DNA from: a virus
Lineage: Duplodnaviria > Heunggongvirae > Uroviricota > Caudoviricetes
Virus record (IMG/VR): IMGVR_UViG_2526164619_000006
Coordinates: 1-16,119 of that record
Length of the DNA: 16,119 nt
Direction: 5' to 3' (one strand)
Every line of letters begins with the position of its first letter. Position 1 is the first letter of the stretch. Under the pieces are notes generated by a model. The model was not told where the DNA came from and ran no database searches. It saw nothing but the letters and a program-made list of their open reading frames with translations. The position numbers were made by a program, and so were the translations under genes. Positions 14,085 through 16,119 of the stretch are shown one piece after another.

Positions 14085-14450
14085 ATGACTGAACGCATAG
14101 AATTTGTTTTGCCTTACCCGCCAACGGTGAACACTTACTGGCGACGTCGTGGCAGCACATATTTTGTATCAAAAGTCGGTGAGCGTTATCGCCGTGATGT
14201 GGCGCTTATTGTTCGCCAGCAGCAACTGAAATTAAACCTGTCCGGAAGGCCGGCAATAGAAATTATTGCAGATCCACCGGATAAGCGCCGTCGTGACCTG
14301 GACAATATCCTGAAGGCACCACTGGATGTACTGACGCATGCGGGGCTGCTCATAGACGACGAGCAGTTTGATGAAATTAATATTGTGCGCGGTCAGCTTG
14401 TTCCTGGTGGGCGGTTGGGGATAAAAATCACAGAACTGGAGTACGCATGA
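14085..14450 (+). CDS. rusA: RusA-family Holliday junction resolvase
   Basis: 121 aa with LPYPPTVNTYWRRRG .. DKRRRDLDNILKAPLDVLTHAGLLIDDEQ .. GGRLGIKITELE, matching the RusA pattern. The start overlaps the upstream stop (TAAATG). Confidence 0.85.
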   Translation: MTERIEFVLPYPPTVNTYWRRRGSTYFVSKVGERYRRDVALIVRQQQLKLNLSGRPAIEIIADPPDKRRRDLDNILKAPLDVLTHAGLLIDDEQFDEINIVRGQLVPGGRLGIKITELEYA

Positions 14451-15136
14451 ATAACCAGTATTTACAGTTTGTTCGTGAGCAACTCATGATTGCCACCGCC
14501 GATTTGAGTGGATCAACAAAAGGGCAGCTTGAGGCCTGGCAGGAGAATGCCATGTTTGATACAGGGCGTTACAGGCGTAAAAAAATCCGGTACCGCGATG
14601 AAGTGACTGGAAAAATGATAACGCGGGATAATCCACCAATCCCGGGAAAGCAATCGCTGGCGAAGGGGGCGTCAATTCCTCTCGTCAGTCCGGTTGAGTT
14701 TTCGACATCATCGTGGCGGCGGGCTGTTCTGTCTCTTGAAGAACATTATAAAGCCTGGTTGTTGTGGTGTTACAGCGGGAGTATTTGTTGGGAATATCAG
14801 ATCGCGATAACGCAGTGGGTGTGGAATGAATTTAAAACCCGGTACGGCACCAGAAAAATTGCAGGGAAAACGCAGGAGCGCGTGAAGAAGTTGATCTGGC
14901 TGGCGGCACAGGATGTCAGAGGATGGATTACCGGGTGTGAGGTCTACCAGAGACAGGAGCTTGCCAGACTGTGTGGAGTTAAGCCTGATAACTGGAGCCA
15001 TAATTATGCGAACTACTGGCGTGAGATGTGCGATATTTTTAAGAGTCTCGATAGAGAATCTGTGATTTGCACCGTGAAAATAAGAGCGCAACAAAAAGCG
15101 ACTTTTTCACGACGAGATATTGCAAAAGTCAATTAA
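14447..15136 (+). CDS. Putative late-gene antiterminator (Q-like), assigned mainly by position and size
   Basis: 229-aa Cys-rich ORF immediately after rusA (ATGA overlap), followed by a promoter-like element and terminator. No similarity to lambda Q or the short 82-type Q that I can confirm from memory. Confidence 0.4.
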   Translation: MNNQYLQFVREQLMIATADLSGSTKGQLEAWQENAMFDTGRYRRKKIRYRDEVTGKMITRDNPPIPGKQSLAKGASIPLVSPVEFSTSSWRRAVLSLEEHYKAWLLWCYSGSICWEYQIAITQWVWNEFKTRYGTRKIAGKTQERVKKLIWLAAQDVRGWITGCEVYQRQELARLCGVKPDNWSHNYANYWREMCDIFKSLDRESVICTVKIRAQQKATFSRRDIAKVN

Positions 15137-15148
15137 ATAGCGTACGTT
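15120..15148 (+). promoter_or_regulatory. Candidate sigma70 promoter at the 3' end of the Q-like gene (pR'-like)
   Basis: TTGCAA (15120..15125), 17-bp spacer, TACGTT (15143..15148). Confidence 0.25.
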
Positions 15149-15203
15149 TCGTATAAATCTGATATTTTGCCGATTTTGTACGCGATGGCAAAGTAAGAAA
15201 AAA

Positions 15204-15225
15204 CTGCCGTCAGGCGGTTTTTTTT
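15204..15225 (+). terminator. Candidate rho-independent terminator (tR'-like) downstream of Q-like gene
   Basis: ctgcc-gtca-ggcgg short stem (one G-U pair) followed by 8 T; preceded by an A-run. Confidence 0.4.
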
Positions 15226-15347
15226 ATGCCCAAAATCGCGTCAGTACAGTAAACACGCTGGTGGTTGCGAATACGGGTCTTTCAGCTTGCTGGCTTTTTC
15301 GACAAGAGTTATTGGTATGTCACGTTAACCGGAAAAAGTAAAAAGAC

Positions 15348-15545
15348 ATGCTAAAACAGCAGGATATGACAGAAACCGCCAGAGTGGTGTTTAATGAATT
15401 AAGCGTTACCGAACCGGCGACAGTCGGGGAGATAGCGCAGAATACTTACCTTTCACGCGAACGCTGCCAGTTAATACTGACCCAGCTGGTTATGGCGGGT
15501 CTGGCAGACTATCAGTTCGGTTGTTACAGACGCCTTCCGCAGTGA
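15348..15545 (+). CDS. Small hypothetical protein (65 aa), possible winged-helix DNA-binding
   Basis: Track ORF; segment TVGEIAQNTYLSRERCQLILTQLVMAGL resembles an HTH recognition region. Weak RBS, so the start is uncertain (alternative ATG 15366). Confidence 0.35.
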   Translation: MLKQQDMTETARVVFNELSVTEPATVGEIAQNTYLSRERCQLILTQLVMAGLADYQFGCYRRLPQ

Positions 15546-15559
15546 AGGCTTTTTTATTT
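15532..15559 (+). terminator. Rho-independent terminator
   Basis: gccttc-cgcagt-gaaggc hairpin followed by ttttttattt; it overlaps the stop codon of the 15348..15545 ORF. Confidence 0.55.
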
Positions 15560-15572
15560 GTGGTAAATGGGC

Positions 15573-15603
15573 GGCTGGTGGGTGTTAGGGGCACCCACCA
15601 GCC
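15573..15603. repeat. Perfect 12-bp-stem inverted repeat (hairpin)
   Basis: ggctggtgggtg / ttagggg / cacccaccagcc. No T-tract follows on either strand. Confidence 0.6.
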
Positions 15604-15644
15604 ATCTGCTCATGCGTTGGGTTCACAAGCAAAGCTCAGGCCCA

Positions 15645-15663
15645 CTGCTTTGCGCAAAAGCAG
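15645..15663. promoter_or_regulatory. Palindrome ctgctttgcgcaaaagcag, candidate operator ~35 bp upstream of the methyltransferase start
   Basis: 7-bp arms ctgcttt/aaagcag around a gcgca centre. Confidence 0.35.
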
Positions 15664-15695
15664 AATGAGCCTATCAGAGACAGGCTTAATGATTC

Positions 15696-15920
15696 ATGCT
15701 TAATACTGTAAAAATATCCAGTTGTGAGTTAATCAACGCCGACTGCCTGGAATTTATCTGGTCGTTACCCGAAAATTCTGTTGACCTGATAGTCACGGAC
15801 CCGCCGTACTTTAAAGTGAAGCCTGAGGGCTGGGATAACCAGTGGAAGGGCGACGATGATTACCTGAAGTGGCTGGACCAGTGTCTGGCGCAGTTCTGGC
15901 GGGTGCTGAAACCTGGGTAA
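15696..15920 (+). pseudogene. Beta-class DNA methyltransferase (N6-adenine or N4-cytosine), 5' fragment truncated by IS1
   Basis: Motif IV DPPY (LIVTDPPYF) lies near the N-terminus. The ORF stops at a TAA supplied by the IS1 terminus after 73 native codons. Confidence 0.75.
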
Positions 15921-16119
15921 TGACTCCAACTTACTGATAGTGTTTTATGTTCAGATAATGCCCGATGACCTTGTCATGCAGCTCCACCGATTTTGAGAAC
16001 GACAGTGACTTCCGTCCCAGCCTTGCCAGATGTTGTCTCAGATTCAGATTATGTCGCTCAATGCGCTGAGTGTAACGCTTGCTGATAACGTGCAGCTTTC
16101 CCTTCAGGCGTGATTCATA
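15916..16119 (-). mobile_element. IS1, partial (runs off the window), inverted relative to the IS1 at 8448..9215
   Basis: Starts ggtaatgactccaacttactgatag.. and by eye is identical to the reverse complement of the insB-end of the first IS1 copy. Confidence 0.9.

Follow-up and report, generated by a model that had tools for sequence, protein, structure and literature searches.

A conserved, co-varying leader precedes M.EcoGII-like adenine methyltransferase genes in late operons of lambdoid prophages

A structured leader of ~130 nucleotides (15567–15686) was identified between a terminator and the start codon of a DNA methyltransferase (MTase) gene in a 16,119-nucleotide stretch of Caudoviricetes DNA (IMG/VR virus record IMGVR_UViG_2526164619_000006). 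This whole stretch is called the window, and all coordinates are window positions unless a homologous locus (labelled L001, L007 and so on) is named. The leader is conserved among homologous loci, its paired positions co-vary, and it is linked to the MTase gene and independent of ORF65, a small open reading frame (ORF) located upstream. The module is ordered, 5' to 3', as the antiterminator gene Q, a tR'-type terminator, ORF65, a second terminator, the structured leader, the MTase gene and an IS1 element (Table 1). We consider it probable that the leader is a cis-acting element of the MTase mRNA in a Q-antiterminated late operon, where its structure would tune the production of a toxic enzyme.

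Conservation and covariation of the leader

The leader is present at 41 of 48 loci, from many genera, that were recovered by a genome-wide scan based on the MTase. Among 26 enterobacterial loci, the 133 nucleotides preceding the ATG exhibit a mean pairwise identity of 0.855, and codon positions 1, 2 and 3 of the MTase gene yield values of 0.85, 0.90 and 0.52, respectively. The leader is as strongly conserved as the codon positions that determine the amino acids, and the alignment of homologous loci reveals an intergenic region that is more conserved than the flanking genes. Conservation is maintained behind different types of Q and different upstream genes. The leader also resides 5' of MTase genes whose products are 56–68% identical, in N15-like phages (phiKO2 and many IMG/VR contigs), Vibrio VP58.5 and Aeromonas phiARM81ld. 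A covariance model prepared from the enterobacterial alignment retrieves all of these divergent copies, down to E 2e-4. At ~100 loci the leader lies directly before the MTase gene, or before a gene for a Mu Com-like protein plus the MTase gene, with a fixed spacing to the ATG. In the window its 3' end is located ~10 nucleotides before the start codon, and coding positions +1 to +25 of the MTase gene are unusually conserved as well (identity 0.90).

The predicted fold comprises a helix (P0) that closes a three-way junction with P1 and P2, followed by the hairpins P3 and P4. The RNA spanning 15560–15700 folds at -61.4 kcal/mol (z = -3.8), and none of 200 shuffled sequences folds as well. P1 (GGCTGGTGGGTG/CACCCACCAGCC, 15573–15584 and 15592–15603) is perfectly paired around a 7-nucleotide loop and lacks a T-tract, as noted in an initial annotation of this DNA. 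No other perfect inverted repeat of at least 12 base-pairs whose arms lie close together occurs in the 16-kb window. The same annotation listed a 19-base-pair palindrome ~35 base-pairs before the ATG. This palindrome (CTGCTTTGCGCAAAAGCAG) is real and ends 33 nucleotides before the MTase ATG, 100 nucleotides downstream of the ORF65 stop codon, but it is imperfect: its 7-base-pair arms flank a 5-nucleotide GCGCA centre, and it is one base off dyad symmetry. Hairpin and palindrome had been listed as separate features, and instead correspond to helices P1 and P3 of a single fold. The hairpin AGCCTATC/GACAGGCT (15668–15686), which was absent from that annotation, forms P4.

Covariation was evaluated with an alignment of 56 sequences (A7). 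Paired states occupy 87.7% of the alignment cells at the predicted pairs, compared with 32–39% when the partners are slid. Compensatory double changes occur in 32 of 40 pairs, compared with 18 ± 1.8 in shuffled alignments (none of 500 shuffles reaches 32), in counts that are somewhat inflated, the alignment having been fitted to the model structure. The weakest helix is P4, in which all eight pairs vary on both sides and only 71.9% of cells are paired. In A5, an independent MAFFT alignment, the best-covarying pair (54/78) resides in P2 and is 99% paired (U-A 31, C-G 26, A-U 10, U-G 4). The raw sequences exhibit the same behaviour. For example, P1 is wholly different in phiKO2-type loci (GCUGCAGCAUG/CAUGCUGCAGC) and in L201 (GGCGGAGAGGGUG/CACCCCAUCCGCC), with pairing retained. 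P2 is fully redesigned in L116, L171–175 and phiKO2-type loci, and P1, P2 and P3 are all redesigned in the phiKO2-type and L171-type sequences.

RNAalifold under default settings returned a different architecture, which combines a long P1 with a long-range helix masking the sequence upstream of the ATG. This fold was rejected because the alignment columns of its key pair (78/133) do not pair consistently (GC 27, AU 23, UC 11, AG 8, GU 2, GA 1). Only its extension of P1 was retained, as an alternative state that is discussed below.

The leader is non-coding, with no conserved ORF inside. A 33-amino-acid ORF that begins at a conserved ATG (15567) was considered and discarded, as it mostly stops after seven codons (MGGWWVL, then stop) and varies in length and sequence. 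P1 does not resemble an intrinsic terminator either, given that no T-run follows 15603 (ATCTGCTC) and that the terminator scan makes no call there. In Rfam 15, no plus-strand match to the window leader was obtained at E ≤ 1, and the sole match (P26, minus strand, E 0.006) is below the gathering score and at the level of chance. Searches of Rfam with five divergent homologs and five distant loci yielded nothing relevant. A description of the leader was likewise not found in the literature on prophage small RNAs (AgvB/AsxR, StxS, Pas) or on N15 and phiKO2. The leader is apparently undescribed, both as an Rfam 15 family and in the literature that was searched.

Table 1. Coordinates of the leader, its helices and segments, and the neighbouring features in the window
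Feature	Position	Strand	Remarks
Antiterminator Q gene	14447..15136	+	PF06323, E 4.9e-84; homologous loci annotate Q
tR'-type terminator, first intrinsic terminator after Q	15198..15228	+	inverted repeat AAAAAACTGCC/GGCGGTTTTTT, then T-run; terminator scan
ORF65, small winged-helix protein, 65 amino acids	15348..15545	+	phrog_331 (PHROGs: function unknown)
Intrinsic terminator	15532..15559	+	overlaps ORF65 stop codon; terminator scan
Segment a, AUGGGC	15567..15572	+	5' strand of P0 or of the extended P1 hairpin; complementary to b and c
Helix P1, 12-base-pair hairpin	15573..15603	+	arms carry Chi in opposite orientation; 10/12 pairs compensatory, 92.8% of cells paired
Helix P2	15605..15633	+	UCUGCU (15605–15610) with AGCAAA (15628–15633); 5/6 pairs compensatory in A7
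Segment b, GCUCAU	15608..15613	+	inside 5' arm of P2
Segment c, GCCCA	15640..15644	+	3' strand of P0; 99.6% of cells paired, double changes in 3/5 pairs
Helix P3, CUGCUUU/AAAGCAG, loop GCGCA	15645..15663	+	4/7 pairs compensatory, 89.9% of cells paired
Helix P4, AGCCUAUC/GACAGGCU	15668..15686	+	last helix before start codon; terminator-like on - strand in scan
MTase 5' fragment, 73 codons, putative M.EcoGI/GII-family beta-class N6-adenine enzyme	15696..15915	+	PF01555, E 8e-7; DPPY motif
IS1 end, truncates MTase gene	15916..16119	-	terminal inverted repeat GGTAATGACTCCAACTTACTGAT; runs to window edge; blastn 'IS1 family transposase'

Alternative folds and candidate roles of the leader

Segment a is complementary to both segment b and segment c in every sequence, and the offset between a and b is fixed. 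When a changes, b and/or c change to match it. Variants of a include CGUGGC in phiARM81ld, AUGAGC in L096 and GUGGGC in VP58.5, and matching changes in a and c were observed in L096 and L137. Pairing of a with b extends P1 to a long hairpin and excludes P2, and pairing of a with c forms the three-way junction, such that the two folds are mutually exclusive. Their predicted ensemble energies are 0–7 kcal/mol apart. This three-way covariation suggests that the leader is a two-state RNA switch.

We propose that the leader functions in the following manner. In the lysogen, PR' transcripts would stop at the terminators, yielding neither ORF65 nor MTase. After induction, Q-modified RNA polymerase would read through these terminators, and only then would the MTase gene be transcribed. 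The leader would fold into one of its two states, thereby setting the amount or timing of the toxic MTase via translation initiation or via mRNA processing or stability. This tuning would take place just before lysis and packaging. ORF65 would be a late-expressed winged-helix protein that is dispensable for the module, and IS1 has inactivated the MTase of this particular prophage.

The likeness of the leader to riboswitches and attenuators extends to a junction fold, covarying alternative partners, states of nearly equal predicted energy and a position directly 5' of an ORF. Unlike such leaders, no ligand, leader peptide, terminator or anti-Shine-Dalgarno platform was identified here. We entertain, as a speculative and rather unlikely elaboration, a riboswitch-like two-state RNA in which a trigger that stabilizes the P0/P1/P2 junction would flip the balance between the a:b and a:c pairings, and thereby license translation of the toxic MTase at the right point of the lytic cycle. 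The trigger could be a metabolite, such as S-adenosylmethionine or S-adenosylhomocysteine, or a phage or host factor, the MTase itself included. The apex of P3 might then provide a second input, either through an RNA kissing-dimer contact or as a dyad site for a protein.

Several observations weigh against a role for the leader as a cis-acting RNA, in addition to the inflation of the A7 pair counts. Constrained folding reveals little difference in start-codon accessibility between the two folds, with only a small and inconsistent trend. A few close MTase homologs (L108, L120) lack the leader, which is not indispensable. The numbers of G·U and A·C combinations are equal (92 versus 91) and exhibit no strand bias, and the minus strand of the leader folds at least as well as the plus strand. 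Finally, almost every lineage has a self-complementary P3 apex (GCGC, CGCG, GUGCAC, GUAC, UGCA and AUCGAU, with one exception), as expected of a dyad site in double-stranded DNA; an RNA hairpin does not need this symmetry, although a kissing-loop contact would show it too. We infer that the leader acts as plus-strand RNA in cis from its context, which places the terminator, the element and the ATG in that order. The promoter scan predicts no promoter on the minus strand and none near the leader.

Some of these observations would be accommodated if the P3 dyad were instead an operator, whose duplex form is bound by a constantly available dimeric protein that serves as a roadblock or repressor. 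Its binder could be the MTase itself, in an autoregulatory loop, or a host factor; the remaining helices would then be separate sites or incidental. The symmetry of the P3 centre in at least five independent variants and the absence of a strand bias in wobble pairs agree with this possibility, as does the precedent of several type II MTases that autoregulate by binding near their own start. However, an operator leaves P0, P1 and P2 unexplained. Non-palindromic loops, bulges, a junction closed over a long range and the covariation of a, b and c carry no meaning in duplex DNA, and the lack of a predicted promoter nearby is a further difficulty. We judge an operator of this kind to be unlikely. 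It nevertheless preserves, as a live rival, the part of the initial annotation that assigns P3 a role at the level of DNA or of a dimer, with ORF65 an unlikely binder.

Alternatively, the leader could be a stable non-coding RNA, or a processing or stabilizing module cut from the late transcript, that does not regulate the MTase. It might contain an RNase III or RNase E site, shield the 5' end of the late mRNA, or simply accompany the MTase gene as an RNA that acts in trans or against host defences. The long, near-perfect stem formed by a:b plus P1 resembles RNase III substrates, the accessibility of the start site is not clearly dependent on the state of the leader, and in phiARM81ld and L192 a Com-like gene separates the leader from the MTase start. 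Prophage late regions are also rich in small RNAs (PMC4104026). The tight association with the coding region speaks against such a module: the leader occupies the same position, directly before the MTase gene or Com plus MTase, at ~100 loci, its spacing to the ATG is fixed, and conservation reaches into the first 25 nucleotides of the coding sequence. Moreover, the scan yielded no independent promoter or terminator for the leader. An autonomous RNA of this type strikes us as a minor, if credible, possibility.

The arms of P1 also carry Chi octamers (GCTGGTGG), at 15574–15581 (plus strand) and 15595–15602 (minus strand). Seven such octamers reside in the window (3418, 13254, 13660, 13712, 15257, 15574 and 15595), compared with 0.52 expected from shuffles. 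The hairpin might be conserved for Chi, which would stop RecBCD that enters from a nearby cos or pac end, or it might be maintained as a recombination linker that joins phage modules. This excess, the pair of plus-strand sites at 15257 and 15574, and the presence of Chi in most enterobacterial copies are points in its favor, as are Stx2k-type breakpoints right after P1 and b and a degenerate second copy in L094. But Chi is missing from P1 of the N15-type loci and of L170, L176, L201 and L208, where the helix is kept, and it is broken in L063, L072, L093, L107, L116 and L126–128, where pairing is kept. These homologs rule out Chi as the general reason for conservation of the hairpin, and P0, P2, P3 and P4 are left without any account. 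We assign this explanation very little probability. The octamers are an overlay in the E. coli lineage and not the conserved feature, and a secondary role there is possible.

Further observations concern P1 and its surroundings. The plus-strand Chi sites at 15257 and 15574 lie within 320 base-pairs of one another on the sense strand of the late operon, in an orientation that would meet RecBCD coming from a cos or pac end downstream. In the P1 arms of N15/phiKO2-type leaders (L138, 1938–1965 of that locus; L140–L165), two inverted PstI sites (CTGCAG) are found. The mosaic breakpoints of Stx2k-type phages (L007, 2815–2875; L019) fall exactly after segment b, with unrelated sequence beyond a-P1-b, and L094 (1526–1684) carries its degenerate second a-P1 copy ~830 base-pairs upstream of the intact one. 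The leader apparently marks a boundary at which modules recombine.

ORF65 and the controller-protein model

The initial annotation also likened the layout to regulation of methyltransferases by controller (C) proteins, a part that would fall to the 65-amino-acid product of ORF65, a possible winged-helix protein. The protein itself is well supported. Homologs number 334, every one in Enterobacterales prophages, and codon-position conservation of 0.71/0.76/0.49, with third positions lowest, marks ORF65 as a genuine gene. An AlphaFold2 model (predicted local distance difference test score, or pLDDT, of 92) comprises helices H1, H2 and H3 followed by a beta wing. Profile searches yield only winged-helix families, and only below threshold: Pfam returns TrmB (E 0.0026), MarR_2 and DprA_WH, with no match to HTH_3. 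Fold and profile matches are restricted to generic winged-helix domains with marginal scores (MarR/OhrR, IclR, O-methyltransferase dimerisation domains and SelB), and a Foldseek structure search for function or partners retrieved the same generic domains at a best E of 1e-3. ORF65 contains two cysteines. Homologs that are only 40% identical still retain helix 3 (CQLILTQL) and an N-terminal DMT motif unchanged, but the polar residues that begin helix 3 and usually contact DNA are variable.

ORF65 is the most common gene 5' of the MTase gene, occurring at 28 of 41 enterobacterial loci and at essentially all 80 IMG/VR loci. The remaining 13 of the 41 enterobacterial loci carry the leader without an ORF65 homolog, and there Q itself or other genes lie upstream. 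No N15-type or Vibrio locus examined has an ORF65 homolog, and the leader is present in each. Conversely, Stx2k-type phages (L007 and L019) keep ORF65, the terminator and the first hairpin, but are missing the palindrome and the MTase gene. Because the leader is kept without ORF65, and ORF65 is kept without the MTase in Stx2k-type phages, the leader belongs to the MTase and not to ORF65. No correlation between the presence of ORF65 and the sequence variants of P3 was evident by inspection. ORF65 is a facultative neighbour that the MTase module does not require.

These findings bear on the proposal that ORF65 is a C-like protein that binds the palindrome, and perhaps the hairpin, to switch transcription of the MTase gene. 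A confident winged-helix fold, the name 'TrmB family transcriptional regulator' that NCBI assigns to ORF65 homologs, the frequency of ORF65 upstream of the MTase gene, its invariant helix 3 and the dyad symmetry of the P3 apex are all in keeping with such a role. The model fares poorly with the remaining evidence. The leader, palindrome included, is equally conserved in loci without ORF65, and ORF65 occurs without the palindrome and the MTase gene in Stx2k-type phages. The protein has a winged-helix fold, with Pfam matches below family cut-offs, rather than the all-alpha helix-turn-helix of Xre type, and the residues expected to contact DNA vary. In addition, the palindrome resides inside a transcribed leader and not at a promoter, no comparable conserved dyad is present upstream of ORF65 (15229–15347), intact loci lack a restriction endonuclease gene, and a multi-helix covarying fold fits RNA better than it fits a set of operators. 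We regard this model as very unlikely.

The resemblance to C.PvuII, C.AhdI and C.Esp1396I is limited to a small protein of DNA-binding type beside an MTase and a palindrome nearby. These C proteins are Xre-type helix-turn-helix dimers. Each binds a C-box that precedes its own gene and sets the timing with which a restriction endonuclease is expressed. ORF65, in contrast, has a winged-helix fold, the palindrome is found downstream of it, in the leader, and persists without the protein, and no endonuclease is present. What remains of the proposal is a dedicated control region for the MTase, since hairpin and palindrome are conserved 5' of homologous MTase genes; the controller-protein layout does not hold. 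The NCBI name should accordingly not be taken to mean that ORF65 is a controller-protein partner of the MTase. Two loci without ORF65, L100 and L103 (2058–2297), encode a 79-amino-acid protein in the same slot, 5' of the terminator and leader. It carries three CxxC pairs and belongs to phrog_7682, of unknown function.

The MTase gene, its late-operon setting and related systems

The MTase fragment appears from its sequence to belong to the M.EcoGI/GII family, and its lack of specificity would follow from that membership. The fragment shares 96% of its residues with the phage 1720a-02 MTase (identity values of 95–96%). An intact homolog (L001, 349 amino acids) carries DPPYF at residues 35–39 and FFMGSGS at 309–315, which is the beta-class motif order, and relatives in the PDB are beta-class enzymes that include RsrI, CcrM and MboIIA. 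In the excerpted text of PMC5778455 (Murray et al. 2018), the MTase of phage 1720a-02 is named as very similar to, or a close relative of, M.EcoGII, and M.EcoGII is described as a non-specific adenine MTase that is unexpressed in the lysogen and deleterious if constitutive. The same excerpts make no mention of an upstream element for the M.EcoGII gene. The present copy appears alike in protein family, shares the prophage context, and differs by its truncation with IS1.

M.EcoGII-type enzymes methylate adenine in any context, are harmful if mistimed and are widely used laboratory tools. Their genes occur in roughly half of complete E. coli genomes, Stx phages included. The leader makes phage control of a toxic, non-specific DNA modifier directly testable. 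No restriction endonuclease gene is annotated in the intact loci.

No Shine-Dalgarno sequence precedes the MTase gene in the window or in most lineages, and an in-frame stop codon is located just upstream of the ATG. Just inside the coding region, all lineages conserve the nucleotide sequence of a hairpin (CACUGU-AAAAAUAA-ACAGUG; +8 to +27, 15703–15725) that is weaker in the window copy. This hairpin may belong to the regulatory fold. Most enterobacterial copies also carry GATC, a Dam site, 3–6 nucleotides before the MTase ATG (CTGATCTATG), which in the window copy (15685–15695) is mutated to GATTC.

As the initial annotation stated, the MTase gene is cut after 73 codons, where the inverted terminal repeat of IS1 (GGTAATGACTCCAACTTA..., from 15916) interrupts the ORF; blastn confirmed the identity of the element. 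None of 5,426 complete E. coli genomes contains the junction between the MTase gene and IS1, and thus the insertion is lineage-specific. The DNA probably derives from a Shigella or from some other IS1-rich strain that this collection does not cover. Insertion of IS1 into a silent late gene is expected as ordinary decay, and no special explanation is needed.

The region is the entry to the Q-dependent late operon of a lambdoid prophage. A DUF968/HNH gene and rusA lie 5' of Q in the window, and a search of the window for tRNA and tmRNA genes found none. The block of Q, ORF65, 150 nucleotides and MTase gene is present in 2,511 of the 5,426 complete E. coli genomes. Genes for tRNA-Ile/Arg, nanS-p and a holin follow the intact 349-amino-acid MTase gene, and intact relatives more generally exhibit tRNAs, stx or nanS-p, and lysis genes after it. 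In Stx phages the ORF65-leader-MTase block lies upstream of the tRNAs and stx. The module of ORF65, intergenic region and MTase gene is also found in phiP27, SfV, cdtI, Stx2a/c/d phages and Citrobacter phiNP, behind differing Q genes and directly 5' of the lysis cassette. This placement makes the module cargo of the Q-dependent late operon.

The second terminator, whose position between ORF65 and the hairpin had been recognized in the initial annotation, consists of a GCCTTC/GAAGGC stem (15532–15549) followed by TTTTTTATTT. A terminator-type hairpin always lies just 5' of the leader in homologous loci, with a weak T-run in several, and its stem co-varies (GCCTTC/GAAGGC, GCTGCC/GGCGGT and GCCTCC/GGAGGC). 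By analogy with lambdoid architecture, the first terminator would close a short PR' transcript. In the region after Q that includes this terminator (15127–15266), the Rfam resemblances all stay below threshold: STnc370 was matched on the minus strand (15192–15266, E 1.3e-4), and isrK and Phe_leader were matched on the plus strand. These resemblances would fit a short PR'-tR' RNA of the StxS, 6S or IsrK kind.

This setting matches the PR'-tR' entry of other lambdoid phages with morons and StxS or 6S-type RNA, in that Q, a promoter-proximal terminator and cargo dependent on Q antitermination are shared. The small RNAs StxS, AgvB, AsxR and Pas come from other positions, either the PR'-tR' transcript or sequence downstream of stx.

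A further parallel is provided by com-mom of phage Mu, in which a late, host-toxic phage DNA-modification enzyme is likewise encoded behind a structured leader, often with a small protein gene. In phiARM81ld and L192, a Com-like zinc-finger gene indeed lies between the leader and the homologous MTase gene. By this analogy, control by the leader may parallel the multilayer control of Mu mom. The two systems differ in that ORF65 encodes a winged helix and not a CxxC...CxxC zinc finger, in that the leader occurs with or without a small protein, and in that its fold is predicted to have five helices and two states, compared with the single inhibitory hairpin next to the Com site of Mu. The enzyme here is also an N6-adenine MTase rather than Mom, and its regulation is predicted from sequence.

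The Com-like genes occur only in distant relatives, namely phiARM81ld and some IMG/VR contigs (L137, 1826–2041; L192; L207), where they overlap the MTase start and fall in phrog_6417, 'translational regulator'. Other distant MTase homologs (59–61% identical; L193–L200, L202, L205 and L210) have a different conserved leader, ~150 nucleotides upstream of the MTase start (locus position 1501). This leader is junction-like, with GCCUUGA...UCAAGGC surrounding two variable hairpins and an AAGGAG Shine-Dalgarno sequence thereafter, and it has no Rfam match. The motif UCAAGGC is common to the L193-type leader and the junction of the main leader, of which the L193-type leader may be a remote variant.

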